From Vampirovibrio sp. (GTDB lineage Bacteria > Cyanobacteriota > Vampirovibrionia > Vampirovibrionales > JAJTHC01): a stretch of 64,000 nt of DNA. The translations under genes and the position numbers were made by a program. The stretch lies in contig JACEUU010000003.1 in the NCBI GenBank assembly GCA_024998755.1, positions 1,417,601 through 1,481,600 on the forward strand, given 5' to 3'. Below, in pieces: positions 2,829 through 49,035 of the stretch. How positions within the stretch are numbered: position 1 is the first letter of the stretch; each line of letters starts with the position of its first letter. A model generated the notes under the pieces. It ran no database searches. It had not been told where the DNA came from and saw nothing but the letters and a program-made list of their open reading frames with translations.

Positions 2829-3113
2829 TACCGATTAAACGATTAAATAGCGTGTGCTAAAATCGATTGTCGTTTACGTCTTTAGCTGGTGGGTGTTAAG
2901 GGGGTTCTTGTTCGAGAACCCCCTTAACAATCCCCCACGAATTCAGGGGCAAGCCGCTAAAGACCCCCAAAAGACACCCCCCTATACCACTACGGGTATT
3001 GACGGGGGGATGCTCTTTTTGCCCCTACGGTGGACGGAACGCATCGGCGACTGCAGAGCAAACGCGATGGTCGTTCCTACTGGTTGGTACGCTATTTAAT
3101 CGTTTAGTAGGTA
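2829..3113 (+). mobile_element. MITE-like structured repeat, family 1 (copy A)
   Basis: TIRs TACCGATTAAACGATTAAATAGCGT / ACGCTATTTAATCGTTTAGTAGGTA. The interior (CGATTGTCGTT...GGACGGAACGCATCG...CGATGGTCGTTCCTACTGG) recurs throughout the window. Confidence 0.9.
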
Positions 3114-3169
3114 TAAAGCCTTTATTTAAAGGAATCTACAAGGTTTTTTTGTGTTTTTTACAAGGTAAA

Positions 3170-3257
3170 ATCTTGATTTATAACCCAAAATTCAAGATGA
3201 CTTGATTTTAAGGAATTCTTTCAAGAAGCACTTGAATTTTGGGTTATAAATCAAGAT
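3170..3257. repeat. 88-bp palindrome with perfect 27-bp arms
   Basis: ATCTTGATTTATAACCCAAAATTCAAG (3170-3196) is the exact reverse complement of 3231-3257. Confidence 0.9.
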
Positions 3258-3486
3258 GCAACGATTTTGTTACAATTAATTGTTTCAAATTAGGTGATTT
3301 TATTACCTAACACCCCCATCGAAAAAAATCCATACTGCCTTACATACCCCCATTTCCCACTAGAAGAGAAAACAGCCATCATTCAAGTTGCAAAAAAATC
3401 TTCAAACAAACAGCCATAAGCTTCCCTCAACGCTCTTCTTTTTCTATTCGCCCAACCACCCTATCTAATGAAAGGTGCATACCCCC

Positions 3487-5283
3487 ATGAATGCCATCAT
3501 CCCAGATGAAACCCACAAACAAAAACCCGACGCCAATACCCTACAACTACACAACCTAACCCTAGAAGACCAAACCAGCTTCGCACAAAGCATTGAAACC
3601 CTATTTAATAGCTGGAAACAACAACGCCAAGCCCAAGAATTATTATGGAAACGCTGCTGGAATGCCTACTTAGCTAACACCGCCCAAGAAGAAGCCGGTA
3701 CACTAACCCAAAAAAGCTACTACAATCCCACCGAAGACAACCAAACCGCCGGCATGAACCGCCCGTTGATTTATCAATCCATCGAAGCATTACACGCCAA
3801 CCTCATGAGCAACCTATTCCCACCCAGCGGGAATTTTTTCAATGTGATTGGCGAAACGGAGGCGGACCATCAACAAGCCAAACCCCTTGAAGATATTATG
3901 AAAACCAAGCTTGAAACCGCCCGCTTCCAAGAAGCCTTTAGCTTGTATTTAAAGCAAATGCTCGTATGCGGTACCAGCATACTTTCAGTGCCATGGAAAA
4001 AAGAAACCCAACTACAAGAAACATGGCAACCCATCAAAAACTTTGGTATGACCATTGGCTACGAACCCACAATGACCGAAGAAATTACCTACGACGCACC
4101 AGAATTCCAAGTGCTAGACCTGTTTAACACCTACCTAGACCCCCAAGCCAAAAACCCGCAACAAGCCACGCTGATTCATCAACTTGAAAAAACACTAGAA
4201 GAACTAGAAGGCCAAGGCTGGTATAGCAACCTAGAAACCGTCGCCGAACAATTGCAACAACAACATCAAGCCCAAAACAAAGGAATGAACAAAGGCAATA
4301 AACAAGCCCCAACCGTTTCTCTACAAGCCGAAAAACTAACCCTACTAGAATGTTGGGGAGATTTCCAATTCAACGGCAAAACCTACCACAACCATGTAGC
4401 CACACTAATAAAAGAAACCAGCACCCTCATACGGTTAGAACCCATTGGATACAGAAACGGGCAAAAACCATTCGCTATTGGTATTCTAACCCCCATTCCC
4501 CACCAACTATACGGGCTAGGTGCTGTAGAAAAAAGCCTTGGGCTACAAAATGCCGTAAACTTGCTAACCAACCAAAAGCTAGATGCCCTCAATCTAACCA
4601 TCCATCCGCCATTTACCTACCTTATTCAAGACGATATTTTCGACCTCACACACCTTTCCACCAAGCCTGGGGCATTAATACCCGTCAAAGACCACAACAC
4701 CATACGCCCCCTACCCATGCCCACAGGAAATTTAGCCCTTGCTTACGAAGAAATCCAAGACCTCAAGCAAGAAATTTTGGAAACAACAGGCTCACTTAGG
4801 CTAATGACCAACACCAACCAAGCCAGTACAGGAGGCAACCAAACCGCCACAGAAATTAATGCTTACCTACAAAGCGGTGAACGAAAGTACAACCAAGTAC
4901 TAAGCCACCTTGAACAAACTTCAGTTGAACCCTTACTCAACAAGGTGTTCAGCCACCTGCAACAATTCTGGAACACCCCCGAAACACTTCGGCTACTACA
5001 ACCCGATGGGTCGGTAATATTCAAGCCCGTTCAGCCCAAAAACCTAAAACGGCTAAAAGTATCGTTCAAAGTAAGCGGTAGTAGAGGGATGCTACAAAAC
5101 AAAGAGGAGCTAAACCACATGCTATTCTTCATTAAAGTGCTACAAAGCCTACCAGAAATCAGAGATAGTATCAATTTTATGGAGTTAGCCAAAGGCATTT
5201 ACGACAAAATTGGGCTAACCAATATTAAAAACGTGTTTACTAACCCGTTTAAGCAACCGCCTACAACGCCGCCTATGGGATAG
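3487..5283 (+). CDS. Phage portal (head-tail connector) protein, P22/podovirus-like
   Basis: About 600 aa with W...W..Y near the N-terminus, P..PHQLYGLG, N..TNQKLDAL, PGALIP and TATEI motifs typical of P22-like portals. GAAAGG RBS before ATG 3487. Confidence 0.75.
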   Translation: MNAIIPDETHKQKPDANTLQLHNLTLEDQTSFAQSIETLFNSWKQQRQAQELLWKRCWNAYLANTAQEEAGTLTQKSYYNPTEDNQTAGMNRPLIYQSIEALHANLMSNLFPPSGNFFNVIGETEADHQQAKPLEDIMKTKLETARFQEAFSLYLKQMLVCGTSILSVPWKKETQLQETWQPIKNFGMTIGYEPTMTEEITYDAPEFQVLDLFNTYLDPQAKNPQQATLIHQLEKTLEELEGQGWYSNLETVAEQLQQQHQAQNKGMNKGNKQAPTVSLQAEKLTLLECWGDFQFNGKTYHNHVATLIKETSTLIRLEPIGYRNGQKPFAIGILTPIPHQLYGLGAVEKSLGLQNAVNLLTNQKLDALNLTIHPPFTYLIQDDIFDLTHLSTKPGALIPVKDHNTIRPLPMPTGNLALAYEEIQDLKQEILETTGSLRLMTNTNQASTGGNQTATEINAYLQSGERKYNQVLSHLEQTSVEPLLNKVFSHLQQFWNTPETLRLLQPDGSVIFKPVQPKNLKRLKVSFKVSGSRGMLQNKEELNHMLFFIKVLQSLPEIRDSINFMELAKGIYDKIGLTNIKNVFTNPFKQPPTTPPMG

Positions 5284-5375
5284 GGGAAGAACTGCGGTCG
5301 ATTGTCGTTACTATCTTTAGCTGGTTGGTTTTGTCGGGGGGGCTGCCAAACAGCAGTCCCCTTATGTGTTGGTAG

Positions 5376-6473
<1,098 letters not shown>

Positions 6474-6621
6474 CACAGATGCTGACAAACCAGCCAACGA
6501 AAATTAGGAACGACAATCGATGAGAGAATACGTTTTTTAATCGTTTAATTGGTATAAAGCCATTAATATTTCTAGGGGACAAGATTTATCCCGCCCGCCC
6601 CTCAATCCCGAATGTGCATAG

Positions 6622-6660: not shown

Positions 6661-6682
6661 TAATTTGAATCTATAGCTACAA

Positions 6683-7159: not shown

Positions 7160-7440
7160 AAAAAAGTTTCTCCTAAAAGAATCAGCACATTGGTTTATTT
7201 GAAACAGCGTAAAAAGTATAAAATAAGCAATTACTAATAGTAAAGTATTTTGTTGAAAAACTAGAAAATCAATAACATACGAAGAGATTATTTCTACTAC
7301 TAGGTTTGTAAATGTTAGTATAAGAAAAAGCTTTTTAAAAGGCAAGTAGTATTTTTGCAAAACCGCTATTACGTCAATAAATCAGTTAAATGGTGTATTT
7401 ATTCTCATTAAACCATTAACTATCGTGTTGTATGGGGGCA

Positions 7441-7725
7441 TACCCATTAAACGATTAAATAGCGTAAAAAAATTGACCTACCAGTAGGAACAACCATCGC
7501 GTTTTCCCTGCAGTCGCCGATGCGTTCCGTCCTTTCGAAGGGGCAAAAAGAACATCCCCCCGTCATATGCCCGTAGTGGCATAGGGGGTGGCTTTTTGGG
7601 TGTTGGGTAGGGGTTTACCCCTCAGTTTGTGGGGGGGTTCGTGGTGGGGCAACCCAACCGCAGTCCCCCCACAAACCAACCAGCTAAAGCAAAAAACGAC
7701 AATCTATGAGAGAATACGAAATCTA
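7441..7725 (-). mobile_element. Family-1 repeat (copy C)
   Basis: TACCCATTAAACGATTAAATAGCGT TIR followed by the reverse complement of the family-1 interior. Confidence 0.88.
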
Positions 7726-9336
7726 ATAAACGCCTTGGAACTTCTTACTACTAAAGCGTTGCGTTACAGACCGGAAATCCCCTTTCGTGCTAGGCGAAGC
7801 TATCAAGGTAGGTGCTGGTCGGCGTTGGGTTAAAGCGGGCTCGTTTTTTTGCTCACTCTGTTTAATAGCTTGTACTAATGTAGCTTGCAAAGCAGACCCT
7901 GAACGAACGGTTCCCGTACTAATAGCACTACCCCTAAATGGCGACTGCACAACGGGTGAAACCGTCATCGCTTCTTGAATTTTCGGTTTGTTAACGAGCA
8001 CTTCTGCTGTGGGCACAAGGTCTCCGTAAACAACCGTTGGCTGGGCTTTCATAGGTTTTTCTGCGGGCGAAAACTGAGCGATTGCTTCCTGCAAACTGGG
8101 TTTATTAACCTTAGGTGGGGTGGCAACTAATTGTTCTTTCAACGAAGCCGTAAATAATGAATGAACGACCTTATCAGTTGCAGAAGTTACGGCTTTGTTA
8201 GTAGGCATTATGTCTTGGTGGGTTTGTGGTGCTACGCCTAAGGGAATTTCCTTTGTTCTAACAGATAACCAGCTTAATAGATTATTAGCATAGCCTTTTT
8301 GTTTTGCCCACAGCCCTAAGCCTACCGCTAAAGCTGAACCCACTGCCACGCTAGCCAAAGGAAATAAAGGAAAAGGGTCGTTTTCCAGTGGCATATCGGG
8401 GGTGTTTTCAGGTAAAAATCGCTGAGCCAACCACTCGCCATCAAACACGGGCACTTTAGGTAGTTGCTCGGTTTCTGGTTCAGTAGGCGTAATATCCGCT
8501 AGCATAATACTTCTAACTGGCCCAGTTAAATTTACTATGTTTGTTGCAGTTTCGCCACCATTAAGCCAAGCTGGTTCGTTGGTGGCTATTTCGGTGGCTG
8601 GCAAGGCAACTGCTTCGCCTTTCACAGCGTTTTCAGTAGCAGTATTAGCGGTTGATGTATTGCTGGTTACGGTACTAGCTATAGCTACAGGCATCACAAT
8701 ATCTGGCTTACTAGCTGATTTCTCATGATTATTAGCCAAAAACATTGACTTATTTGCCGTTAGTAGCGTTGTTTTTTTAACTGCTTTCAATGGGTAATAA
8801 TGAGGTCTCTTGGCGATTGATGCCTTTTTCGAAAAGCTGGGTTTCTTCGTGGTCGGTTTTGTGGCTGCTTCTGCGTAAAACGAGGTATCTTCATTGCTGG
8901 CATTTTCGGCGACTGGTTCAGAGATGAATGGACTAGATGCACCGCCAATAACTTGTACTTTCTGGTTAAGTTCAACGCCGTTGGGTATGGTAATACTTAC
9001 TTGGTTATTGCTTAGTTGGGTGGCTCTGCCAATGTATTTACCTTGGGCATCCATTACCACGGGTAGCCCTTCTTGCTTCATTTTATTTGAGATGGTGGTG
9101 TTTTTAAGAATCAACTTGTAGATGCCTTGTTGGCGTTGTTCTTCCACTTGAATGGGTTGTTGGGTGTTTAGCCTAATGCGAACAGACCCTTGTTCGTCGT
9201 TTTCTAACTGAAAACCGTTTAGCTGGGCTACGGCTTCCACTTTAGGCATCCATACCAGCGAAGTTGCTAATAATAATAGGGCAAAACACCAGATGGATGT
9301 GGTAGATTTACGAAGCAGGAAGGGTGAAATAAGCAT
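7723..9336 (-). CDS. Secreted or membrane-anchored protein with an N-terminal AMIN-like domain
   Basis: Signal peptide, a beta-rich LNGFQLE..VRIRLNT..YKLILKNT segment, a low-complexity stalk and an internal TM helix (VAVGSALAVGLGLW). Confidence 0.6.
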   Translation of the reverse strand: MLISPFLLRKSTTSIWCFALLLLATSLVWMPKVEAVAQLNGFQLENDEQGSVRIRLNTQQPIQVEEQRQQGIYKLILKNTTISNKMKQEGLPVVMDAQGKYIGRATQLSNNQVSITIPNGVELNQKVQVIGGASSPFISEPVAENASNEDTSFYAEAATKPTTKKPSFSKKASIAKRPHYYPLKAVKKTTLLTANKSMFLANNHEKSASKPDIVMPVAIASTVTSNTSTANTATENAVKGEAVALPATEIATNEPAWLNGGETATNIVNLTGPVRSIMLADITPTEPETEQLPKVPVFDGEWLAQRFLPENTPDMPLENDPFPLFPLASVAVGSALAVGLGLWAKQKGYANNLLSWLSVRTKEIPLGVAPQTHQDIMPTNKAVTSATDKVVHSLFTASLKEQLVATPPKVNKPSLQEAIAQFSPAEKPMKAQPTVVYGDLVPTAEVLVNKPKIQEAMTVSPVVQSPFRGSAISTGTVRSGSALQATLVQAIKQSEQKNEPALTQRRPAPTLIASPSTKGDFRSVTQRFSSKKFQGVY

Positions 9337-9451
9337 GGTGTCTCAAACCTTTCGGTGGGTATGCACAATAGTGGAATAGGCTTATTGTCTCATTGCAACC
9401 CCGCACTTGCCCATCCTACCAACAGAGGAAATCTGCTTATCCTTCATTCCA

Positions 9452-9690
9452 CAAATAAATAGCGTATCAACCAACCAGTAGGAACGACCATCGCGTTTGC
9501 TCTGCAGTCGCCGATGCGTTCCGTCCACCGGAGGGGCAAAAAGAGCATCCCCCCGTCAATACCCGTAGTGGTATAGGGGGGTGTCTTTTGGGGCTTGCCC
9601 CTGAATTCGTGGGGGATTGTTAAGGGGGTTCTGCTAAAGACGGAAACGACAATCGATGAGAGAATACGCTATTTAATCTACAAACGGGTC
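9452..9690 (-). mobile_element. Family-1 repeat (copy D), partial TIRs
   Basis: TAAATAGCGT...AGTAGGAACGACCATCGCG...AACGACAATCGATGAGAGAATACGCTATTTAATC. Confidence 0.85.
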
Positions 9691-10727: not shown

Positions 10728-10835
10728 ACCCTTAAACTTTAGCAATTAAACTTTAATTTATATGGTAATTTAAAAACAATTACGCTTCAAAACAATAATG
10801 CGGAACACTTGGTAGCACTCGGCTTAGGGCTTCAT

Positions 10836-11035
10836 GGGGGGTGGTATTTGACCACCCCCCAAACCCCCCGCAAATTTAAGGGGGCTCCACGCCCCCTTAA
10901 AAATCCCCTCTCAAGGGCTGATTTGTTGGCTTCCACGTTAGAAAGAGGCTTGAGCGGAAGCTAGAGGCTCCCTAAATGCTCTGCTTCGCTACGCTCGCAC
11001 CAGCCTCTTCCCAACTAGGTATGATTTGAAGCTAA
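10836..11035 (+). repeat. Structured repeat, family 2 (copy 1)
   Basis: The 61-bp core 10946-11006 is identical to 35076-35136 and is preceded by G/C-run hairpins. Confidence 0.8.
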
Positions 11036-11100
11036 AACTATCAGCTTAAACTCAATAATAATAGGCTTTCCGCAGTTTGGTTGGGAAGCGTAAAAAACAA

Positions 11101-11370
11101 TATAGCGTAACAACTAACCAATAGGAACGACCATCGCCTTTGCTCTGCAGCGGCGATGCGTTCCGTCCACCGGAGGGGCAAAAAGAGCATCCCCCCGTCA
11201 ATGCCCTTCTGGTGGCATAGGCGGGTGTCTTTTTGGGGGTTCTTAGGGGTTTACCCCTAAGTTTGCGGGGGGTGTTCGTGGTGGGGCAACCCAACCGCAG
11301 TCCCCTGACAAACCAAACAGCGAAAGACGCAAACGACAATCGATGAGAGAACACACCATTCAATCTTCAA
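11101..11370 (-). mobile_element. Family-1 repeat (copy E), containing an empty IS110 target (CT core 11305-11306)
   Basis: Reverse-complement family-1 interior containing GCAGTCCCCTGACAAACC. Confidence 0.88.
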
Positions 11371-11377
11371 ATTCATC

Positions 11378-12718
11378 TTAGGCGTGAAAATGCTTCGCAC
11401 TACTGAAATGGTCTTTTACCTTATTGGTAAAATAGTGGTCTTCAGTGGGAATTGGGCTATTTTTCTTAACAGCGTCATTTTTTTGAACGGCTACTGCATT
11501 GGCTACTTTTTCTTGATGTCCTGCTTCTTTTAACAACCGTTTTTTTTCTTTTCTGGCGGTTAGCCATTTTGAAAAGACCACGGCGAAAATACCGGCATTG
11601 AGTGTTTTGGCTAAATCCCCGAAAACGTAGGCAATATTTTGCCGATAGTTGGTTGGTATTTCTGGGTATTTGTATTCTAACAAACTGAGCCCTGTAATCC
11701 AGATGGAGAAATATAGCATATTACCGCCAAACAGGGTGGCAAAATCTCTGGAAGCCAGCTCTAGGCGTTTTCTTTTGGCTTCTTCGGGGTCAAGGTGTTG
11801 GTCTTTGGTAACATATTGGTTCCACCGCAGGGCGGGTAATAGCAGAACGGCGGCGAAATAGCCTGAAAATTTCTGGGCTTTAGCCCAACCCGTGCCACCT
11901 GTATTGGCGTGGAAGTTTTCAACCCACTTGCTGGAAAAACTGGCGGTATTGATGGCTTGTCCACTACGTTGTTTCGTTGTTACGGTTGGGCTATTAAAGG
12001 GCACAATACTATTTTTAGTGGTTGTTTGTGTTGTGGTAGTTGGTTGAAGAGGAGGGGCAACGGGGTCATTTTTTGTTGATGTTCCTACAACGGGCTGAGG
12101 CAAATCTGAAGGGGGTGGTGTGGGTAGGTTTATGCCGGCGTTTCTTAACCATTGGGCTGGCTTTGTTCTTAATAATGAATGGCTAATGCGGTCTTGTACA
12201 GGTAAATTGGGGTTTACGGGGTGAACAAACATCTTGTCGGCCCATCTGCCAAACCACATGGCGGTGAATGCACCGTGGGCTAAGGCTGCGGCGTGCCCAA
12301 TGGCGTAGGCTAAAAAATCGCCTTTGTCTTTATTTATCCCTTTTTCCATAAACCATCCCATGTGGTTGAATAATTTATGGGTTAAAAATTGTGTTCCTAG
12401 AAAAATAGCGCCACCTACCAGTAAAGCCATTTCATCTCTGGCGAACAGTCCCCATTTTTCGTCTTTATCATCAATGGCAAGGTGCATAAAGGGTACGGCG
12501 GTGGGGGTAATCCATAGCATACGAGTTTCTAGAGTTTTGTGGTCTATTTCCCCAAATTTTCGCATTAGCGGATGGTTGAGAATACCCGGAAAATTACCGT
12601 TATTGCCTGCGGTAGCCCCTGAACGTTGTTGCATTCTTAGGGGTGCTACCAATGGCGTGGTTAACGGGTTATTTTGTTGTGCATTGTTGAAAATGTACAA
12701 GGGTAATAGCTTTTCCAA
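11378..12718 (-). CDS. Hypothetical multi-pass membrane protein
   Basis: 446-aa ORF with several hydrophobic helices and a Pro/Thr-rich linker. No recognised family. Confidence 0.65.
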   Translation of the reverse strand: MEKLLPLYIFNNAQQNNPLTTPLVAPLRMQQRSGATAGNNGNFPGILNHPLMRKFGEIDHKTLETRMLWITPTAVPFMHLAIDDKDEKWGLFARDEMALLVGGAIFLGTQFLTHKLFNHMGWFMEKGINKDKGDFLAYAIGHAAALAHGAFTAMWFGRWADKMFVHPVNPNLPVQDRISHSLLRTKPAQWLRNAGINLPTPPPSDLPQPVVGTSTKNDPVAPPLQPTTTTQTTTKNSIVPFNSPTVTTKQRSGQAINTASFSSKWVENFHANTGGTGWAKAQKFSGYFAAVLLLPALRWNQYVTKDQHLDPEEAKRKRLELASRDFATLFGGNMLYFSIWITGLSLLEYKYPEIPTNYRQNIAYVFGDLAKTLNAGIFAVVFSKWLTARKEKKRLLKEAGHQEKVANAVAVQKNDAVKKNSPIPTEDHYFTNKVKDHFSSAKHFHA

Positions 12719-13188
12719 TTGGTTAATGGTACAGGGAAGAGTGAAAGCTGTTGCTTAAACACATTAGGTTTAAAGGCTAGCTTAGTTACAGTAAACGCTA
12801 CACGAATGAAGCCTTCTGCAAGAAAAAAGATGTTAGTTTTTATGGGTAAAGTCTTGTTTTTTTAAAAAGACTTTTATACCTAAATGATAATAATTAAGAG
12901 AAGATAACGTTGTACTAACAACAGTAACAGTAGCAACAACAACGTGTTGTGTTAACGTAGCTTGAACCCCGCATCAACCCGAATGAGCCTAGCATTCGCA
13001 TTGAAAAGCTGACGATAATTTTTATTAAATTTGAAATGGGTGTTTTGGGTTTGCACACAGCCACGGAAAATGAAAGCCTTTAACTTTTACAAAACGGTAA
13101 GTAACCCTTTAAATCTAACAGAAATGCCTTCTGATTGCAACTGCCATTATAGCCGTTGCTTACTATCGGATACCCCTTCATCATTTCA

Positions 13189-13460
13189 TACCATTTCAAA
13201 GATTGAATGTCTTTCCTCCAGTAGGAACGACCATCGCGTTTGCTCTGCAGTCGTCGATGCGTTCCGTCCACCGAAGGGGCGAAAAAAGCATCCCTCCGTC
13301 AATGCCCGTAGTGGCATAGGAGGGTGTTTTTTCGGGGGTTTTTAGGGGCTTGCCCCTAAATTTGTGGGGGGTGTCGGGGGGCTGCCAAACCGCAGTCCCC
13401 TAACAAACCAACCAGCTAAAGCTAGGAACGACAATCGATGAGATAACACGTTATTCAAAG
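13189..13460 (-). mobile_element. Family-1 repeat (copy F)
   Basis: TACCATTTCAAAGATTGAATGTC TIR-like end plus the family-1 interior. Confidence 0.87.
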
Positions 13461-13472
13461 GCTTAACCGGTC

Positions 13473-14081
13473 TTAAGTGTTTTTCATACCAGCCATCCAC
13501 GGCTTGGCGGAATCTTTTAGCTTGGCGGTTTTAATGGTTTTAAATGCTTTTTGAATATCGCACCGCAGGGTGGTTATTCTGGCAGATTTGGTCATACCGT
13601 TTAATAGGTCTTGTTCAATTTCGGCTTTGGTTTTACCTGCTTTTGCCACTATATTTTCCGGATGTTCTAGCTGCTCAAGAATTTGACTGGCTACTTCTAA
13701 TTGCTTCAGGGTTAAGCGTTCTGAAAGTTCCGCAGGTATTGTTGCTTTTAGCGCTTTAAAGGCTTTTTCGGCTTCTGTTAATTTACCTTCACTCAGCTGA
13801 ACCACGGCTAAATTAAAGGCTAAAGCGGTATTTTCAGGCATTAATGTTTTAGCGGAAGACAATAATTTATCGGCTTCATCTAGCTTATTGGCTTCAATGG
13901 CGGCTTGGGCTTTTTTGTTTAACTCTTCAACGGCTTTCCCCATGGGGTTAAACGCTTGTTTAGGGTCAGGGGCGGTACAGCCAGTTAAGCTGGTACTTAA
14001 TATAGCAATGCCTACACAGTAGGCTACAACAGCTACAACAAGAGCTAAAGGCATTAATTTCGTGTTTGATGATAATGACAT
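13473..14081 (-). CDS. Predicted lipoprotein with a TPR-like repeat
   Basis: Hydrophobic N-terminus ending in a SLTGC lipobox, then A..LL..A..L.P.N..L.FNLA..L..G...EA TPR pattern. Confidence 0.65.
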   Translation of the reverse strand: MSLSSNTKLMPLALVVAVVAYCVGIAILSTSLTGCTAPDPKQAFNPMGKAVEELNKKAQAAIEANKLDEADKLLSSAKTLMPENTALAFNLAVVQLSEGKLTEAEKAFKALKATIPAELSERLTLKQLEVASQILEQLEHPENIVAKAGKTKAEIEQDLLNGMTKSARITTLRCDIQKAFKTIKTAKLKDSAKPWMAGMKNT

Positions 14082-17832: not shown

Positions 17833-17955
17833 TACGAATCAAAAGTTTAAATAGCGTGTTGGCTTTACAGCATGGGCGGGCGACCACAAGGGTTCGCCCC
17901 TACAGGCTCAATGATTTTTTAAAATACTATACGACATTTAATCTTTGAATGGGTA
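17833..17955. mobile_element. MITE with family-1-type TIRs carrying a single REP-like palindrome
   Basis: TACGAATCAAAAGTTTAAATAGCGT ... GGGCGGGCGACCACAAGGGTTCGCCCCTAC ... ACGACATTTAATCTTTGAATGGGTA. Confidence 0.75.
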
Positions 17956-19265: not shown

Positions 19266-19503
19266 TGTAAAAGCCTTTTTTAGGTAGATAAACCCTTGAT
19301 ATGGTTGTAATATTACCTAGAGTAGGTTATTTTCACTCTTGATGCAAGTCGTCTTTGTAATAGACACGTTTTAAACCATAGGTATTAAACAGTCCATTTG
19401 GTGGTGTTAATCTAAGCCAAAGTAACGTAATTCCAGCTTCTAGTTCAGGTTTTTCAATTAGAGCGTAATACCAATTTCAAATAGAAATATCGTCAGCGTC
19501 TAA

Positions 19504-19786
19504 TACCCATTAAACGATTAAATAGCGTGTGCTAAAATCGATTGTCATTTACGTCTTTAGCTGGTTGGTTTGTCAGGGGACTGCGGTTTGGCAGCCCCCC
19601 GACACCCCCCTCAAATTCAGGGGCAAGCCCCTAAAAACCCCCGAAAAAACACCCCCTATGCCACTACGGGCACTGACGGGGGATGCTTTTTTCGCCCCTT
19701 CGGTGGACGGAACGCATCGACGACTGCAGAGCAAACACGATGGTCGTTCCTACTGGTTGGTACGCTATTTAATCCTTTAGTAGGTA
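19504..19786 (+). mobile_element. Family-1 repeat (copy G), containing an empty IS110 target on the minus strand (core 19575-19576)
   Basis: TACCCATTAAACGATTAAATAGCGT / ACGCTATTTAATCCTTTAGTAGGTA TIRs, with a TTTGTCAGGGGACTGC hairpin. Confidence 0.9.
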
Positions 19787-19923
19787 TAAGTTGTTACCGT
19801 CAAGCAAAAAATCCTCAATGGTCGTCTGTGTACGCCTGCGGTTTTTTGCTTAACAGTGCCTAGTATCCATCTAACACTATTCCTATTTTAAAATGGTATA
19901 AGCTCTAAAACCATGCAAAATTA

Positions 19924-22878: not shown

Positions 22879-23018
22879 CGTAAAATCATGATTCGGGATG
22901 CCACGGGGGGCATCCCCTACGAAGGGAGAATTATCCGATTACTGTAGGGGACATCCCCCCGTGGTGTCCCGTTGGTGATGCAAACCCAAACACGCGATTT
23001 AATCTGTTAATTGGCATT
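22868..23018. mobile_element. MITE-type TIR pair enclosing an inverted REP doublet
   Basis: CAGATTGAATAGCGT ... GGGATGCCACGGGGGGCATCCCCTAC / GTAGGGGACATCCCCCCGTGGTGTCCC ... ACGCGATTTAATCTGTTAATTGG. Confidence 0.7.
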
Positions 23019-23929: not shown

Positions 23930-24089
23930 TACCGATTAACCGATTAAATGTCGTGTTTTCTCATCGATTGTCGTTTCAGTCTTTCGCTGGTTGGTTTATC
24001 AGGGGGTTGCGGTTTGGCACCCCCCGACATCCCCCACAAATTCAAGGGGTTCCTACTGGTTGGTACGCTATTTAATCTTTGAAATGGTA
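23930..24089 (+). mobile_element. Internally deleted family-1 repeat (copy H)
   Basis: Both TIRs are intact. The interior jumps from CAAATTCAAGGGG directly to TTCCTACTGGTTGG. Confidence 0.88.
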
Positions 24090-25367: not shown

Positions 25368-25498
25368 AGGGGGTTTGGGGGAGCGTTGCCCCCCACAAGG
25401 GGGTTCGGGGGAATAAATCCCCCGGCGAGGGGAGTGTTGAGGGGGTCTCGGTACCCCCTTAACGAATCAACCAGCGAAAGCTAAGAACGACAATCGAC
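25368..25498 (-). repeat. Divergent family-1-related repeat (copy I)
   Basis: Ends in AACCAGCGAAAGCTAAGAACGACAATCG (family-1 head, reverse complement), but the interior has different G/C-run hairpins. Confidence 0.7.
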
Positions 25499-25512
25499 CT
25501 TAGTTTTTGAAT

Positions 25513-27701: not shown

Positions 27702-27984
27702 TACCAATTGAAAGTTTAAATGTCGTATTCTCTCATCGATTGTCGTTTGCGTCTTTCGCTGGTGGGTGTTAAGGGGGTTCTTGTTCGAGAACCCCCTTAA
27801 CAATCCCCCACGAATTCAGGGGCAAGCCCCTAAAAACCCCCGAAAAAACACCCCCTATGCCACTACGGGCACTGACGGGGGATGCTTTTTTCGCCCCTGC
27901 GGTGGACGGAACGCATCGACGACTGCAGAGCAAACGCGATGGTCGTTCCTACTGGAGGAAAGACATTCAATCTTTGAGGTGGTA
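27702..27984 (+). mobile_element. Family-1 repeat (copy J)
   Basis: TACCAATTGAAAGTTTAAATGTCGT ... AGACATTCAATCTTTGAGGTGGTA TIRs plus the family-1 interior. Confidence 0.9.
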
Positions 27985-28061
27985 TGACTACCTTCAGGTT
28001 GATGGTTATGTAACCGATACTAATAACATCTACTTAAAAAATGACGAGGTAACTCCACCCT

Positions 28062-30521: not shown

Positions 30522-31787
30522 ATGTCCACTTCCCACGCCCAAATTTCGATGCCCGCCCTGTTGTTTTTAATGGGTGGCGTGTTATTGTTAATCGCTCTGG
30601 GTAGCCAAAGCTTCAAAAAACGAGGGCTTTCCCCCGTCGTTGGCGAAATGCTAGTAGGTATGGCGATTGGTCCTTTCGGTTTCGGGTGGCTTCAGCCCAA
30701 CATCGTGCTTCATGTACTGGCGGAACTTGGCTTAGTATTTCTACTACTTGAAACAGGGTTAGAAACGCAATTAGCAAGCCTATGGGCTGCGGGTAAATCT
30801 TCATTAAAAGTAGCCATTATTGGGGTTGTTTTACCCTTTGTTTTAGGTACAGGCATTGGGCTAGCGTTTCAGTTGCCCCTATTAACCGCCGTTTTGGTGG
30901 GGGCAACCCTTTCCGCTACCAGTATTGGCATTACCGCCAAAGCCCTGCAGGAATTAGACTTGCAGAATCGCCCAGAAACGGCGATTATTCTGGGTGCAGC
31001 GGTGATAGATGACGTGCTGGGCTTGCTGATTTTAGCCCTACTTCAAGGCTTGTTTTCATCGGCAGAAAGCGGTGCGGAAATCGTTTTTTCACTGGCTAAT
31101 TTAACGCCTTTATTGGGTATTATAACCCTTCTTGCTATCGGCTATTTTGGTAGAAACTGGCTATTAACCGCTGTTTTACCGCAGATTGTTCGGATAGGGC
31201 AGTGGTTCACCAAAAAATTAGTCGTCCCCAAAGATGGGTCTGCCAAAGAGGTGTTCATTTTAATTGGCGGTATGTTGTGCTTGTTGGCGGGGTTAAATCA
31301 AACCATTGGGCTTTCTACGGCGTTGGGGGGCTTTATGGTGGGGCTAGCCCTGCAAGAATGGAGTAAAAACGAACCTCGGTTACAGCCTGTGGTGCAGGAA
31401 GTGGGCGTGGTGGGTAGTTTAATCATTCCCTTTGCCTTTGTGAATTTGGGTATGCAACTCAACTGGAAGCAGCTTGTTCCGGTTGATGCTAGCGTGTTTA
31501 GCCCTACCTTGTTGTGGGTGGCGTTGGGCATTACGGTTGTTGCCTTTATTAGTAAGTATTTGGCGGGGTTTGCCGTGCCGAAAGCCAACGAAATTAATCG
31601 GTCGTTAATTGGGCTGGGTATGATTCCCCGAGGGGAAGTGGGATTAATTTTTGTTCAAGTCGGGTTAAGTGTTGGTGCGTTGACTGATTTTTGGGCGAAT
31701 GTGTTGGTGTTGGCGGTTTGTATTTCTACGCTAATTCCGCCGATTTTGCTTAAGTTGGCGGTTAAAGCGGAAAAGAAGCAATCATGA
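30522..31787 (+). CDS. Cation:proton antiporter (CPA2, NapA/Kef-like)
   Basis: P.VVGE.L.G..IGP, LAELG..FLL..GLE, ATSIGI, GAAV.DD and GMIPRGEVGL motifs. Confidence 0.92.
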   Translation: MSTSHAQISMPALLFLMGGVLLLIALGSQSFKKRGLSPVVGEMLVGMAIGPFGFGWLQPNIVLHVLAELGLVFLLLETGLETQLASLWAAGKSSLKVAIIGVVLPFVLGTGIGLAFQLPLLTAVLVGATLSATSIGITAKALQELDLQNRPETAIILGAAVIDDVLGLLILALLQGLFSSAESGAEIVFSLANLTPLLGIITLLAIGYFGRNWLLTAVLPQIVRIGQWFTKKLVVPKDGSAKEVFILIGGMLCLLAGLNQTIGLSTALGGFMVGLALQEWSKNEPRLQPVVQEVGVVGSLIIPFAFVNLGMQLNWKQLVPVDASVFSPTLLWVALGITVVAFISKYLAGFAVPKANEINRSLIGLGMIPRGEVGLIFVQVGLSVGALTDFWANVLVLAVCISTLIPPILLKLAVKAEKKQS

Positions 31788-32059
31788 ATAGTATTTTCTC
31801 AAGTCGATTGTCGTTCCTAGCTTTAGCTGGTGGGCGTCAAGGGGGTTCTTGTTCGAGAACCCCCTTAACAATCCCCCACGAACTTAGGGGTAAACCCCTA
31901 AGAACCCCCAAAAAGCCACCCCTCTATGCCACAAGGGCATTGACGAGGGGATGTTCTTTTTGCCCCTTCGGTGGACGGAACGCATCGACGACTGCAGAGC
32001 AAACGCGATGGTCGTTCCTACCAGTTGGTCAATTTTTACGTTATTAAAGGTTTAATGGG
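31786..32059 (+). mobile_element. Family-1 repeat (copy K)
   Basis: Family-1 interior with degenerate TIRs, starting at the antiporter stop codon. Confidence 0.85.
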
Positions 32060-34860: not shown

Positions 34861-34954
34861 GGTTTATCCAACTGAAAAATTTGAGAGAGAGAAGCGGTTT
34901 CGTAACCACTTCTCTCTTTTCTTTTATCGATGATTGCTTCGGGCTAAGGTGGAT

Positions 34955-35165
34955 GCGTCAGGGGGACTGGCGTCAGCCCCCCTAACAACCCCCACCGCTT
35001 AAGGGGCAGTTCGCCACCCCCTTAAGAAACCCCAGGGGAACAACTGGTTAATTGGCTTACATGTACGTTGAAAATAGGCTTGAGCGGAAGCTAGAGGCTC
35101 CCTAAATGCTCTGCTTCGCTACGCTCGCACCAGCCTATCTCCAACTGCATATGGTTCGAAGCTAA
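34955..35165 (+). repeat. Structured repeat, family 2 (copy 2)
   Basis: The 61-bp core 35076-35136 is identical to 10946-11006. Confidence 0.8.
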
Positions 35166-35179
35166 ACATTTTAGAACTT

Positions 35180-35460
35180 TTCAAAGATTAAATGACTTAC
35201 CAACCAGTAGGAACGACCATCGCGTTTGCTCTGCAGCCGCCGATGCGTTCCGTCCACCGAAGGGGCAAAAAGAACATCCCGCCGTCAATGCCCTTCTGGT
35301 GGCATAGGCGGGTGGCTTTTTGGGGGTCTTTAGGGGCTTGCCCCTGAATTCGTGGGGGATTGTTAAGGGGGTGCACGAACAGGCACCCCCTTAACGCCCA
35401 CCAGCTAAAGACGCAAACGACAATCGATGATAGAACAAGTTGTTCAATCTTTGAATTGGC
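35180..35460 (-). mobile_element. Family-1 repeat (copy L)
   Basis: TTCAAAGATTAAATGAC ... GTTGTTCAATCTTTGAATTGG TIR remnants plus the family-1 interior. Confidence 0.87.
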
Positions 35461-35475: not shown

Positions 35476-36675
35476 TTACCCAGCGACAGCTGCGGTCTTC
35501 ATATCAAACCGAACGCCAGCAGTTTTCATCCGCTCTAACACTTCGGTCAATTTCGCTTCAGGCACAGTTAACGCCACACGGAAGAACCCTTCCCCTTGCG
35601 ACCCATACCCCGTACCAGGAGGCACCACCACACCACATTTTTCTAACAAGAAGGTTACAAATTCCACGCTGGTAAACCCAGTAGGCACAGGCAACCACAA
35701 ATAGAAGGTGGCTTCAGGCATCGCCAAGTTCCAGCCTAATTCCCGCAACCCATTTACAAATAAGGTTCTACGGCTACCATAAATTTCATTTAAGCCAGCA
35801 GTCAGCTGGGCAGATTGGTTTAAGCCTGCAGCCCCAGCCCGTTGAATGGCTTTAAACACGCCACTATCGGTATTGTTTTTTACGGTCGCTAGCGGACGAA
35901 TTAAATCCGCATTCCCTGCGGCAAACCCAATTCTCCACCCTGTCATGTTGTACATTTTAGACAGAGAGAAAAACTCGACGCAAACATCTTTTGCTCCTTC
36001 AACGGCTAAGAAACTTGGGGCTTGGTAGCCATCGTAAGTCATCTCGCTATAAGCGTTATCATGGCAAAGTACAATATCATATTGTTTGCAGAAGGCAATC
36101 GCTTTTTTAATGAAGGCTTCCGTGCAAACCGCCCCTGTGGGGTTGTTGGGGTAGTTGAGGAAAAGCAATTTCGTGCGTTTAGCAATATCTTCAGGAATGG
36201 CGTCTAAATCTGGCAAGAAGCCGTTTTCAGCCAACAACGGAAGGGTATAGGGTTCGCCACCAACTAATAGGGTGTAATTGTTGTATACAGGGTAGCCGGG
36301 GGAAGGGCAAAGCACGACATCGCCTGCTTCAACGTAGGCTAAAATCATGTGGGCTAAGCCTTCTTTAGAGCCAATTAAGCTGAGAATTTCGCCTTTTTTG
36401 GCTTCTACGCTAACACCGAAGCGGGTTTGCATCCAGTTTTCGGCGGCGGTCATTAATTCAATATTGCCTTGGTTGGATGGGTAGTTGTGGGTATCGGGGT
36501 CTTGAACGCCGGCAATAAGGGCATCTACAATGGGCTGAGGGGTCGGTAGGTCAGGGTCGCCAATGCCAAGGCTAATAATATCCACGCCTTTGGCTCGGGC
36601 TTCAGATACTTTACGATCAATTTCGGTAAATAAATAGGGGGGTAATAAGCCTAATTTTTTGGATGGTGTTGGCAT
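35476..36675 (-). CDS. dapL: LL-diaminopimelate aminotransferase
   Basis: LPPYLF, LGIGDPD.PTP, GSKEG, LNYPNNPTGA, HDNAYSE, SLSK.YNMTGWRIG, DSGVF.AIQ, GEG.FR.AL. Confidence 0.9.
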   Translation of the reverse strand: MPTPSKKLGLLPPYLFTEIDRKVSEARAKGVDIISLGIGDPDLPTPQPIVDALIAGVQDPDTHNYPSNQGNIELMTAAENWMQTRFGVSVEAKKGEILSLIGSKEGLAHMILAYVEAGDVVLCPSPGYPVYNNYTLLVGGEPYTLPLLAENGFLPDLDAIPEDIAKRTKLLFLNYPNNPTGAVCTEAFIKKAIAFCKQYDIVLCHDNAYSEMTYDGYQAPSFLAVEGAKDVCVEFFSLSKMYNMTGWRIGFAAGNADLIRPLATVKNNTDSGVFKAIQRAGAAGLNQSAQLTAGLNEIYGSRRTLFVNGLRELGWNLAMPEATFYLWLPVPTGFTSVEFVTFLLEKCGVVVPPGTGYGSQGEGFFRVALTVPEAKLTEVLERMKTAGVRFDMKTAAVAG

Positions 36676-36870
36676 GGTGAATCAAAATCCTTACTAATTA
36701 ATACAACAGTGAAAGGGGTAACGACAAATAATACTATCTGTCATTAAACCAAAAACGCATCTTAAAAAAAACCCCTTGGGCTCTAAATTTATTACTTCAG
36801 CGTTTAAATAGCGATTTCTCTCATCGATTGTCGTTTTCGTCTTTCGCTGGTTGGTTTGTCAGTATCTGTG

Positions 36871-37794
<924 letters not shown>

Positions 37795-37820
37795 GGTAGG
37801 ATTTCCTTTGGTAGAAAAAT

Positions 37821-37965
37821 AGGGATTTGGATTTAGCCTTATGGTACGAACGTTAGAGTTCGGGCATCTGTTCAAATGGCATCCCTTGTAAAACGGTGCT
37901 AGTGATCTTGCTGACAATCGGTTGTTTGGAGCCGAGGGGAATGGACGATCGACTAGCACCGTTTT
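37821..37965 (-). ncRNA. Predicted IS110 bridge RNA, copy 2
   Basis: Reverse complement of 5379-5523, with identical guide segments. Confidence 0.82.
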
Positions 37966-38077
37966 ATTCTACCAACACATAAGGGGGTTGCCAAACCGCA
38001 CCCCCCTGACAAACTAACCAGCAAAAAACGGTAGCGACAATCGATAAGAGACACGCTATTCAATCTATGAATGGGAA

Positions 38078-43711: not shown

Positions 43712-43865
43712 CTCTTTCTGTTTGTTTTTTTGATAAGGACGTAGCGAATTCTCTCTGTTTATTTTTATAGTTTGACTTTAATTGCTTGAATTAGGTAAGG
43801 TGCTTGGGGGTAGAATCCATCAGTAGATGGAGAAAAATCGGGGCAAGGGGTTGGTAATCCAATCA

Positions 43866-44144
43866 AACAATAAATAGCGTAAAAAACGACCAACCAGTAG
43901 GAACGACCATCGCGTTTGCTCTGCAGTCGTCGATGCGTTCCGTCCACCGGAGGGTCAAAAAGAGCATCCCCCCGTCAATGCCCTTTTGGTGGCATAGGGG
44001 GGTGTCTTTTTGGGGGGATTTTAGGGGGCACCCCCTGAATTTTCGGGGGGTGTCGGGGGGGGTGCCAAACCGCAACCCCCTGACAAACCAACCAGCTAAA
44101 CCAAGGAACGACAATCGATGAGAGAACACACGATTCAAACGGTA
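43866..44144 (-). mobile_element. Family-1 repeat (copy N), containing an empty IS110 target (CT core 44080-44081)
   Basis: Reverse-complement family-1 interior containing GCAACCCCCTGACAAACC. Confidence 0.88.
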
Positions 44145-44299
44145 TATGTTTTTTACAAAAATGAACTCAACTGCAAGGTGGAACGAATCAATCAACCCCG
44201 TGTAAATTTTTCACAAGTATGTTATGATGTAACTAAATTGTAACAATCAAATAATCACACGCTTTATGCTTGCGTGTTAGTTGGAGAATACCCGTTGTG

Positions 44300-45118: not shown

Positions 45119-45123
45119 GAAGC

Positions 45124-46283: not shown

Positions 46284-46294
46284 AACATCTTTAA

Positions 46295-46426
46295 TACCAA
46301 GTAAACGATTAAATAGCGTGTTTAGCTTTACATCATGGGCGGACGACCACAAGGGTTCGCCCCTACGGTAGTCTGTTAATTTTTCCTTCGTAGGGGAGAC
46401 CCTTGTGGTCTCCCGAATCAGGATTA
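46295..46426. mobile_element. MITE left TIR plus REP doublet, interrupted by IS630-A
   Basis: TACCAAGTAAACGATTAAATAGCGT, then GGGCGGACGACCACAAGGGTTCGCCCCTAC / GTAGGGGAGACCCTTGTGGTCTCCC. Confidence 0.75.
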
Positions 46427-46428
46427 TA

Positions 46429-47006
46429 TAGCTGTTCCAATAATTATTGAGCTATAATAAGGAGGATAACGTTCACGAAAAAGGAGGATTCATCTATGGC
46501 ATATAGCGTCGATTTAAGACAACGAGTCGTTGATTGCATCAATCAAGAAAAAGAAACACAACAAGCCACCGTCATCCGATTCAAAGTCAGTCTCGCCACC
46601 GTCAAACGATGGGTCAAACGAACCTGTCTCATCCCCAAAAAACCAGGGGCAACCACCGCAACAAGCATCGACAGAAACCAACTACTCGCCATACAAAAAG
46701 CCAACCCCAGTGCCTATTTGGACGAATTGGCTCTCTTGCTCGGTTCTAAAAAATCCACCATTTCCTACAACCTCATTAAACTCGGCATTAGCCGTAAAAA
46801 AAAGCACGCTCTACCGAGAACGAAGTGAAGCCAAACGCACAGTTTATAAGCAGGAGATAGAACCGCTAACGCCCGCCAGTCTTGTGTTTGTGGATGAATG
46901 TGGGGTTGACCGTAGAAGCGTTGAACGCTTGTATGGTCGTTCCCCTAAAGGTGAACGGGTGCAGGAGGAAATTAGTGGTCAACGCACCGAACGTACCTCT
47001 ATTATA
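46429..47006 (+). mobile_element. IS630-family element A, 3'-truncated copy
   Basis: TA + TAGCTGTTCCAATAATTATTGAGC end, orfA 46496-46828 (MAYSVDLR..., HTH), A8 slippery run 46796-46803, start of the DDE ORF (FVDECG). Cut at TA 47005-47006. Confidence 0.9.
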
Positions 47007-47162
47007 TAGCTGTTCCAAAAGTTATTGAGCCATTTTAAAGGCTTGGGCAATGGCTTCATCTAAAGATAAGGTATCGGTTAGTAACCGACGAATTCTCGCC
47101 TTCAACGCCGACCAAAATCGCTCAATCGGATTCAAATCAGGACTGTCATACCAATTCCAAGT

Positions 47163-47753
47163 TTAAATAGCGTGTTGAATATAGGGGAAATAGGCGAACG
47201 ATTTCACCCACGCTGTATTAGCCTCTACCCAGCGTAAAGCCTTCACTAAATGAGCTTCCACTGCATCCAACGTCTCAAAATAAGCATTGCCAAAAAACCG
47301 AGTCCGAATACCCTTCCACAACTGCTCCACAGGGTTCAACTGCGGACTATACGGCGGTAAACAAACCAACCGAATGTTAGCAGGAACAACCAGCCCCCCA
47401 CTTCTATGCCAACCTGCACCATCCAAAACAAGCACAATCTCATCTGCAGGGTAACGCTCACTTAATTCACGTAAGAATACGTTCATCCAATCCGTATCCG
47501 CATACGGAAGAATCAACGAAACACTCTCTCCCGTCTTGGGTTCCATGGTACTATACGCATAGAGGTATTGCCGTATATGTTGAGCTTCCACTACTGAACG
47601 TTCACCCTTGGGTAACCATACTTTACGAACTTGGCAAATTTTGCCAAACCTCGCCTCATCCTGAAAAAATAGCCGAACTGGCTTTTTTACTGTTTTTGTA
47701 ACAGAGTTAACGAAGTCAGGAAGTTTTTTTGAAGAGGGTTTGAGCCTCATCAT
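47163..47753 (-). CDS. IS630-B transposase, DDE part (probably joined to orfA by -1 frameshift)
   Basis: FFQDEARFG, LVLDGAGWH, LPPYSPQLNPVEQLW. A7C slippery site at 47723-47730. Confidence 0.9.
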   Translation of the reverse strand: MMRLKPSSKKLPDFVNSVTKTVKKPVRLFFQDEARFGKICQVRKVWLPKGERSVVEAQHIRQYLYAYSTMEPKTGESVSLILPYADTDWMNVFLRELSERYPADEIVLVLDGAGWHRSGGLVVPANIRLVCLPPYSPQLNPVEQLWKGIRTRFFGNAYFETLDAVEAHLVKALRWVEANTAWVKSFAYFPYIQHAI

Positions 47754-48165
47754 TATGGTTGGGATGCACTGGGCGAGGTACTTTTGCCTTCCAATCGTGG
47801 CGATTGAGCAGGTTGTAAACAGTTTGAAAGATGACGGGTCTGCCCACCAGTGCGTTGAGTGCCTGGTGTAAATCGTAGATACCGACCTTACCTTTGTGGC
47901 GTTGTAGTAGGTCTATTTCGGCTTGTTTACTGGGTAGTAGGCTATTGCGTACAATCCCTTTTTTAGGATAGAGACTGTAAAGTCCGTGTTGTTGAACTTG
48001 GGCTTGAATGCGTTGGACGTGTCGAAAGCCGAAACCCGTATGTTGGGCTATTTCGGCTTGTGTTTTACCGTCGATTATTTTGAGTTTAATGCAGAGGAAT
48101 CGGCGATAGGTTTTCTTGTCGGTGAAGGTTTTTTCAAAGGCGAGTAAGTCTTCTTGGGTGATCAT
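47716..48165 (-). CDS. IS630-B transposase, N-terminal HTH part (orfA)
   Basis: HTH segment G.TQAEIAQHTG, winged-helix segment VYNLL.RH.W, PRP.HP, ending at the slippery site. Confidence 0.85.
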   Translation of the reverse strand: MITQEDLLAFEKTFTDKKTYRRFLCIKLKIIDGKTQAEIAQHTGFGFRHVQRIQAQVQQHGLYSLYPKKGIVRNSLLPSKQAEIDLLQRHKGKVGIYDLHQALNALVGRPVIFQTVYNLLNRHDWKAKVPRPVHPNHNDEAQTLFKKTS

Positions 48166-49035
48166 GATCAGACTCTTTCAAATAAACAATAATACCCCTC
48201 TATTATACGCTATTTAAACTTGGAATTGGTAGAAGGCGGTAAAAACAACAACCGACAACCCGCAGATTCAATCAGCTGTTGAATCTCCCAAGATTTATGA
48301 AAACTCGCATTATCCCCAATGACCGTCATCCCCGCCGTTAAACTCGGTAACAACTCATGTTCAACCCACGTCAAAATAACCTCGGTATTACAATAGCCCT
48401 TAAAACACCACGGGGCTAATGGCTTTCCACCCTGTAACCCTGCTATAATAGAGGTACGTTCGGTGCGTTGACCACTAATTTCCTCCTGCACCCGTTCACC
48501 TTTAGGGGAACGACCATACAAGCGTTCAACGCTTCTACGGCCAACCCCACATTCATCCACAAACACAAGACTGGCGGGCGTTAGCGGTTCTATCTCCTGC
48601 TTATAAACTCTGCGTTTGGCTTCACTTCGTTCTCGGTAGAGCGTGCTTTTTTTTACGGCTAATGCCGAGTTTAATGAGGTTGTAGGAGATGGTGGATTTT
48701 TTAGAACCGAGCAAGAGAGCCAATTCGTCCAAATAGGCACTGGGGTTGGCTTTTTGTATGGCGAGTAGTTGGTTTCTGTCGATGCTTGTTGCGGTGGTTG
48801 CCCCTGGTTTTTTGGGGATGAGACAGGTTCGTTTGACCCATCGTTTGACGGTGGCGAGACTGACTTTGAATCGGATGACGGTGGCTTGTTGTGTTTCTTT
48901 TTCTTGATTGATGCAATCAACCGACTCGTTGTCTTAAATCGACGCTATATGCCATAGATGAATCCTCCTTTTTCGTGAACGTTATCCTCCTTATTATAGC
49001 TCAATAATTATTGGAACAGCTATAACAGGGCTTTA

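Follow-up and report, generated by a model that had tools for sequence, protein, structure and literature searches.

We examined a 64-kb window of a Vampirovibrio sp. genome (the whole stretch of DNA analyzed, C1:1417601-1481600; the genome, G000, comprises 2.49 Mb on three contigs, C1 to C3, with 43% G+C) that is rich in copies of a short repeat and also carries an insertion sequence (IS), IS630-B. A preliminary description had reported about 14 copies of the repeat in the window and had read it as a nonautonomous miniature inverted-repeat transposable element (MITE) mobilized in trans by IS630-B. Repeat copies were collected genome-wide with an iterated nhmmer profile, and a direct-repeat search recovered the same ~285-bp family, here called M285. 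The profile confirmed all 14 positions as members of this one family: ten are full or nearly full-length copies, two are short head-to-head forms with an IS110-type element in between, and two are short or partial.

The copy at 2829-3113 (plus strand) is full length, has the TACC start and GGTA end of the family, and is flanked by a TAA/TAA duplication (profile, ends, flanks, and fold). Its predicted fold, at -126 kcal/mol, is far better than those of shuffled sequences (z = -7.2). Two further copies are on the plus strand: 27702-27985 is full length (profile and ends), and 31785-32056 starts at the stop codon of ORF 30522-31787 (profile and open reading frame [ORF] list). The copy at 19504-19786 is nested, with a TAA duplication, in a 144-bp MITE (M144) that spans 19469-19898 on the plus strand (delimited by empty paralogues). 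The minus-strand copies were all identified by the profile. Among these, 7440-7728 is full length with a left terminal inverted repeat (TIR) that proved decayed on inspection of the ends, 9446-9686 is nearly full length with an internal deletion, and 43859-44146 is full length. The full copy at 11094-11373 has one end adjoining the stop codon of minus-strand ORF 11378-12718, and that at 35176-35459 lies 14 to 17 nt past the stop of ORF 35476-36675 (both from the ORF list). In the flanks of the full copy at 13188-13468, the TTA at 13473-13475 is the TAA stop of ORF 13473-14081. The head-to-head forms, identified by the profile and without an assigned strand, span 5292-6554 (arms 5292-5364 and 6482-6554) and 36796-38075 (arms 36796-36862 and 37980-38075). 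A 160-bp short form at 23930-24089 (plus; TIR pattern and profile) consists of the M285 left arm with a TIR pair and taa/taa flanks, and 25417-25513 (minus; profile) is a fragment.

Across the genome, 174 profile matches merged into 168 M285 loci, 48 of them near full length; the loci lie on all three contigs, and 18 of the matches are in the window. The hundreds of copies foreseen earlier were therefore too many by about threefold, as the density in the window would imply ~550. The window is the densest of 37 64-kb bins (17 loci versus 4.3 expected; Poisson P, ~3e-6), and the distribution of loci is overdispersed (variance-to-mean ratio, 2.5). Only 3.6% of the loci have their midpoint inside a stop-free frame of at least 150 amino acids (aa), versus 83% of the genome. 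M285 is small and noncoding, and its copies differ from one another by 1- to 2-nt indels; a peptide-coding role was rejected on the grounds that ORFs in the copies had no Pfam match and that these indels break the frame.

IS630-B occupies 47149-48231 on the minus strand (TIRs and domains) and is inserted at a TAA in a copy of another element, IS630-A. Its TIR, TACCAATTCCAAGTTTAAATAGCGT, is perfect at 47149-47173 (plus) and 48207-48231 (minus), with 25 of 25 nt identical and ~90% identity over 39 nt, and its size (1,083 bp) is within the range of the IS630 family (~1 to 1.4 kb). The element contains two ORFs. orfA (48165-47716) has the helix-turn-helix (HTH) domains HTH_33, HTH_28, and HTH_23, and orfB (47753-47163) has a DDE_3 domain (PF13358; E = 6.7e-25). 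The conceptually fused protein scored 191.9 bits against NCBIfam NF033545 (IS630 family; cutoff, 100), and we read D169, D248, and E280 as its catalytic residues. Its three-base target might have suggested the IS5 or PIF-Harbinger groups; this assignment was dropped because IS630-B matches DDE_3 and NF033545 and not DDE_Tnp_1. orfB is in the +1 frame relative to orfA, and their overlap holds the sequence CTC TTC AAA AAA ACT, with an A7 tract at 47724-47730. The motif CTCTTCAAAAAAACT is kept in the copy of a second genome of the same genus (G001; 96% identity), in relatives from the sister genus (74 to 76% DNA identity), in metagenome relatives, and in a contig labeled Dolichospermum. Most database homologues of IS630-B are DDE-only proteins of ~196 aa. 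We therefore regard the separation of orfA and orfB as conserved and not as a product of faulty assembly. Recoding is known in IS630-family elements (PMC5009743, PMC6211511).

The genome holds ~19 to 20 full IS630-B copies that are 98 to 100% identical, and IS630-B is the only element in it that pairs these TIRs with a transposase gene. Six longer TIR pairs (1.3 to 2.8 kb) were considered as other autonomous partners and set aside, since they hold host genes or nested IS110 or IS630-A elements and no transposase of their own. IS630-B is thus the only resident candidate partner. As a separate observation, contig C2 (0.70 Mb) holds 12 of the 19 to 20 full copies, whereas M285 is evenly distributed among the contigs.

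The preliminary description had also claimed that the repeat ends match the IS630-B TIR and that the interior shows no visible similarity to the IS body. Both points hold: the M285 consensus showed BLAST similarity to IS630-B only over the terminal 25 to 28 nt, at 88 to 92% identity. With no similarity past the terminal 28 nt, M285 is not a deletion derivative (type I MITE) of IS630-B. A degenerate TIR pattern (TACCnATTnAAnGnTTnAATAGCGT, up to 3 mismatches) occurred at 19 sites in the window (0.01 expected) and at 276 sites genome-wide, compared to none in the reversed genome sequence used as a control. A genome-wide search for convergent TIR pairs returned 101, which fell into discrete size classes of 161 bp (25 to 28 pairs), 144 bp (17 pairs), ~285 bp (9 to 12 pairs by the strict TIR test), ~158 bp (9 pairs), and 124/183 bp (4 pairs), plus 19 pairs that are IS630-B and several of singleton sizes. 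At least five MITE families (285, 161, 144, ~158, and ~124/183 bp) share the TIR, and their interiors are unlike one another and unlike the IS body. The consensus ends of M285, M161, and M144 agree with IS630-B at ~22 to 25 of 25 to 28 nt, and no match was found elsewhere. M285 is a genuine nonautonomous MITE with IS630-B-type ends. That MITEs borrow IS630-type ends is already well known, and this basic finding is ordinary.

Other TIR-bounded elements in the window were found with the TIR pattern, all on the plus strand: a 123-bp MITE of the M158 type (17833-17955) and a 136-bp MITE related to M161 (49036-49171), both of which have this TIR and are flanked by tta/taa, and a 160-bp MITE with tta/tta flanks (22857-23016). 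Outside this genome, G001 contains IS630-B at 96% identity and at least 23 M285 matches, and the sister genus in the same family has IS relatives at 74 to 76% and many TIR-bearing sites. Beyond this family, all 400 genomes sampled from the phylum lacked the TIR pattern (up to 1 mismatch). A 1,423-bp contig (L188) of a metagenome-assembled genome labeled Dolichospermum carries an IS relative (75% amino acid identity) with the same TIR type, the A7 tract, and TTA/TTA flanks. No sampled cyanobacterial genome had the TIR. This contig may be misbinned or horizontally transferred.

The elements that share this TIR also share a target footprint, whose length we state as 3 bp by the usual convention. 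Flanking triplets are identical and nearly all TNA in 23 of 25 M161, 15 of 17 M144, and 10 of 19 IS630-B copies. Eighteen of the 48 near-full M285 copies keep TA...TA termini; nine of these have TNA on both sides, and in seven of the nine the two triplets are identical, versus 36% by chance. Empty paralogous sites, sought by local BLAST of the joined flanks, have one T-N-A triplet, and filled sites have one on each side of the element. These empty sites are 5 nt shorter than predicted when the flanks are joined under a TA duplication. A TA duplication with CC...GG ends was rejected because it would leave an extra TA in the empty sites, and none is there. When compared with the ~55% of G001 covered here, the two flanks of M161, of IS630-B, of a 181-bp element, and of one M285 copy have exactly 3 nt in common. 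The CTCTTCAAAAAAACT-bearing relatives of IS630-B (those at 74 to 96% DNA identity and those from metagenomes) are all flanked by TNA, as are metagenome relatives at 90% and 75% amino acid identity. TTA/TTA flanks and an A7 site were also seen in a 46% relative whose genomic surroundings are unrelated. IS630-B, with TNA and 3 bp, departs from the TA target and 2-bp duplication by which the IS630 family is recognized (PMC2170065). Our literature search returned no paper linking IS630 with a TNA duplication; it did not cover ISfinder and does not establish absence from the literature.

IS630-A provides a comparison within the same genome. This second IS630-family element (934 bp, including the flanking TAs; ~19 copies) is bounded by TA, and its insertion into an M285 end, at GCG-TA-CC, shows the classical TA duplication. 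Because IS630-A duplicates TA, the TNA footprint is specific to the IS630-B lineage. The copy that IS630-B interrupts in the window (47006-49024, minus; copy comparison) has the ends TATAGCTGTTCC and duplicates TA. It is part of a nest of mobile elements at 46295-49171, which consists of a MITE left end at 46295, a truncated IS630-A (46428-47005), the full IS630-A with IS630-B, and the 136-bp MITE.

Empty sites indicate that M285 itself has moved. The copy at 19504-19786 is inserted precisely: once it and one TAA are taken out, M144 has its exact 144 bp, and the M144 copies elsewhere, in either species, continue without a break at this point. For orthologous sites, where our comparison covers ~55% of G001, that genome has no M285 at the orthologue of C1:894231 or at the 3' end of its ORF 13473-14081 counterpart (next to the window copy at 13188), with divergence blurring the junctions there. 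Sites free of M285 were therefore found among paralogues and also among orthologues, the latter being the check proposed in the preliminary description. Other insertions are common to both species; for instance, C1:572710-572950 has a 91% match (L030) that is oriented alike. Two intergenic sites that are orthologous between the species have M285 in opposite orientations (2829-3113 versus G001:C25, and C3:102520-102807 versus L035), which could mean that M285 inserted twice, independently, at one spot or that it was inverted via the TIRs.

The families differ widely in age. Median pairwise identity, with gaps scored as mismatches in M285, was 0.994 for M161, 0.986 for IS630-B, 0.889 for M144, and 0.726 (maximum, 0.88) for M285. 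M285 is the oldest and most decayed of the at least five MITE families that share the TIR. G001 holds M161 relatives that are only 71 to 74% identical, so the M161 burst was recent and lineage specific. The family that coamplified with the present IS630-B is M161, and M285 was not moved in this recent burst. Mobilization by IS630-B, as first proposed, thus stands in part. M285 is noncoding and TIR bounded, its ends and duplication match, and IS630-B is its sole resident candidate partner; however, the near-identical IS630-B copies present today (98.6%) did not visibly move M285, and it was M161 (99.4%) that coamplified with them.

An IS110-type element of 1,117 bp has a fixed relation to M285. 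Its 13 copies all interrupt the hairpin of the M285 left arm at one and the same position (...CCCCT / IS / CTGACAAACC...); two are in the window (5365-6481 and 36864-37979, which split the head-to-head forms) and 11 are elsewhere in the genome. Since every copy is at this one point, M285 is the exclusive landing site of this element in the genome and so shapes where other mobile DNA lands. G001 shows the same arrangement (L021).

Old copies are concentrated at the ends of genes. We compared the triplets flanking the 48 full M285 copies with the stop codons of ORFs of at least 120 aa, with the expectation taken from permissible TNA sites. In 12 copies (25%), the stop codon of such an ORF coincides exactly with one of the two flanking triplets, versus 2.8% expected (P = 7e-9). 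The same holds for 4 of 17 M144 copies (P = 0.001), and the young families have no excess (1 of 25 M161 and 0 of 19 IS630-B copies). Moreover, 33 of the 48 M285 copies follow a stop at a distance of no more than 150 nt. With respect to the gene before them, the copies show no significant bias in orientation (12 sense and 5 antisense at 5 nt or less; 18 and 15 overall). Because TAA and TGA are themselves TNA, the duplication restores the stop, and such insertions are harmless and remain in old families. The simplest reading of the excess is survivorship, and the age series M161, M144, and M285 suggests that the pattern was built by selection and not by target choice. TNA targeting offers a simple reason for small mobile elements to pile up exactly on stop codons.

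Taken together, we consider it probable, from the sequence comparisons, that M285 is one of at least five MITE families that were moved in the past in trans by a transposase of the IS630-B lineage with duplication of TNA. Under this explanation, fusion of orfA (HTH) and orfB (DDE; D169-D248-E280) at the conserved A7 tract would yield the transposase, by a mode of fusion that we infer from the frames. The fused protein would bind the shared TIR, act on it in trans, and excise the element, which would then be reinserted at a T-N-A with a 3-nt stagger, so that TNA is duplicated. The amplification of M285 in this genus would be ancient and due to an ancestor of today's IS630-B or to an element closely related to it. 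Most copies would later have lost intact ends and stayed in place, and those on stop codons would have survived preferentially as the duplication regenerates a TAA or TGA target. The recent IS630-B burst would have moved M161 and not M285. Several points weigh against this explanation. No pair of M285 copies exceeds 88% identity, while IS630-B and M161 are at ~99%, and hence there is no sign of M285 mobilization by today's IS630-B. Many M285 TIRs are decayed, and a subset carries TACCnATTAAACGATTAAATAGCGT, which is closer to the IS variant of the sister genus (L014) than to the IS630-B of this genome. The M285 core is better conserved than the TIRs, which is not predicted for a purely selfish, decaying element. 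With regard to the footprint, the flanks would also fit a duplication of only 1 bp, with the outer A and T being part of the element. The window copy of IS630-B has no clean duplication (TCA at 47146-47148 and GAA at 48232-48234), although its target in IS630-A reads TAA in 19 other IS630-A copies, and 9 of 19 IS630-B copies have unequal flanks. Carry-over of donor flanks is an unlikely source of the differing middle bases, given that M161 and M144 flanks match in ~90%. Some IS630-B copies share half-flanks, which fits recombination between the 1-kb IS copies better and suggests that the unequal flanks reflect such recombination.

The history of M285 might instead involve another member of the lineage that is now gone from the genome, similar to the sister-genus IS (TIR TACCAATTAAACGATTAAAT(A/C)GCGT), with the resident IS630-B being a cousin unable to use M285 ends. 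The M285 copies at 2829, 7441, and 19504 carry ...AAACGATTAAATAGCGT, identical there to the right end of the G015 IS relative (L014), whose left end differs by one base, ATCGCGT; the lack of recent M285 copies despite active IS630-B and M161 would also be explained. Nevertheless, the M285 consensus TIR (CCAATTCAAAGATTGAATAGCGT) lies at much the same distance from the two IS variants, M161 amplified recently although its TIR has about as many differences from that of IS630-B, and G001 carries both M285 and the 96% IS630-B. We regard a lost partner as unlikely. Far less credible still is that the repeats are units like repetitive extragenic palindromic (REP) sequences, spread by recombination, whose likeness to IS ends is a coincidence. 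Their strongly intergenic location and hairpin content would suit such units, but the discrete TACC...GGTA termini, the duplicated TNA flanks, and the precise nested insertion with empty paralogues contradict it, and the 25-nt match to the IS ends had zero occurrences in the control.

The conservation of the core raises a different alternative, namely, that M285 arrived as a MITE and is now kept mainly by host use, with its core serving as an RNA element at the 3' end (a terminator or stabilizer) or as a site for protein or DNA structure. Column-wise pairwise identity among the 48 copies is 0.63 to 0.68 in the TIRs and 0.84 to 0.93 at positions ~150 to 255, where long invariant runs are common to copies of both species. 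The core values exceed those of genes that are orthologous in the two species (73 to 88% DNA identity). Two hairpins contain compensatory changes, and the sense strand has a conserved GC hairpin followed by ATG(C/T)TCTTTTT. The stop-codon excess, the location of 33 of 48 copies shortly after a stop, and the rarity of M285 in long ORFs would fit host use as well. On the other hand, orientation is without significant bias, and a promoter and terminator scan, including one of the consensus, gave no consistent signal across M285 copies. An Rfam search had no match at the gathering score, and the sole relaxed match (E = 0.76) is meaningless. Further, purifying selection alone can give the stop-codon excess, and the covarying cells come mostly from few subfamilies and could be products of templated repair within palindromes. 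Core conservation may stem from host use, from gene conversion that favors the center, or from loss by excision of copies with good TIRs. It makes host use a testable possibility, although we consider it rather unlikely that host use is what mainly keeps M285 in place. Equally tentative is a broader proposal in which IS630-B represents an undescribed, widespread IS630 clade with a 3-nt TNA stagger and A7 recoding, whose MITEs regenerate stops, and in which the structured ~105-nt M285 core has been selected as a 3'-end element, making M285 a domesticated MITE and not a fossil.

Mobilization by an IS630-B-lineage transposase would place M285 beside several known systems. RUP and IS630-Spn1 of Streptococcus pneumoniae were reportedly described by Oggioni and Claverys in 1999. 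RUP is ~107 bp long and flanked by TA, its ends resemble those of a resident IS630-family element, and its mobilization in trans has been proposed. M285 is likewise small, noncoding, TIR bounded, and intergenic, with IS630-like ends and with elements nested in one another; RUP differs in its TA flanks, whereas here the flanks are TNA, several unrelated MITE families share one TIR, and M285 is much older than its partner. Stowaway MITEs and plant Tc1/mariner transposases comprise many families with unrelated interiors that share TIRs and target site duplications with one transposase lineage. The likeness is cross-mobilization by end recognition alone, and the difference is that Stowaway is eukaryotic and duplicates TA. 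Three-base duplications (TNA, TAA, or TTA) are known from Tourist MITEs with PIF-Harbinger and from IS5-family groups such as IS1031. These share the 3-bp TNA with our elements, but their transposases are of the IS5 or PIF type and that of IS630-B is DDE_3. RUP has been discussed in PMC10969869 and PMC3049150, and the superfamily that includes PIF-Harbinger (PHIS) is treated in PMC4482050.

The biochemically studied ISY100 (ISTcSa) of Synechocystis PCC 6803 is an IS630-family element that uses almost only TA targets and makes a 2-bp duplication (PMC2170065). It resembles IS630-B in its HTH N terminus and DDE domain, short TIRs, and ~1-kb size, and its chemistry is cut and paste, as that of IS630-B would be when read from sequence. 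ISY100 differs in having a single-ORF transposase and a TA target, where IS630-B duplicates TNA and would need a frame change at A7. In a Roseiflexus IS630 element, the transposase is made from two overlapping frames through a T5C5 slippery run with an upstream hairpin (PMC5009743, PMC6211511). The two-frame transposase and slippery run are points of likeness; IS630-B differs in having an A7 tract and orfB in the +1 frame, and its recoding is a prediction. The Nezha MITE was reportedly described by Zhou et al. in 2008. As cited in PMC10969869, Nezha is an Anabaena/Nostoc MITE with TIRs, direct repeats, and a stable fold, for which an IS partner was proposed from end similarity. Nezha resembles M285 in these features and as a MITE of the cyanobacterial phylum, and it belongs to another family.

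A transposase that passes the IS630 model and has a 3-bp TNA footprint departs from the TA that is treated as diagnostic for IS630/Tc1/mariner elements. If biochemistry confirms the footprint, comparing IS630-B with IS630-A would be a natural way to learn how the target stagger is determined in this superfamily.

A few further arrangements involve the same TIRs. Another repeat, present in the window at 10790-11095 and 34917-35166, has a nearly identical ~61-bp core (GGCTTGAGCGGAAGCTAGAGGCTCCCTAAATGCTCTGCTTCGCTACGCTCGCACCAGCC); elsewhere, at C2:481078-481425, it forms part of a 348-bp element that has these TIRs, and it is abundant in G001 too. Convergent MITE TIRs surround single-copy host genes at C2:271373-273517 (a small channel-like ORF and a lipoyl-domain-like ORF) and at C2:581179-582462 (a dethiobiotin-synthetase-like ORF), which are potential composite-transposon configurations. 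Finally, a ~2.7-kb unit between two inverted M161 copies with mirror-image flanks occurs at least three times (C1:116027-118715, C1:141176-143864, and C2:286671-289370) and may represent either a composite element or an IS that carries M161 and was duplicated.

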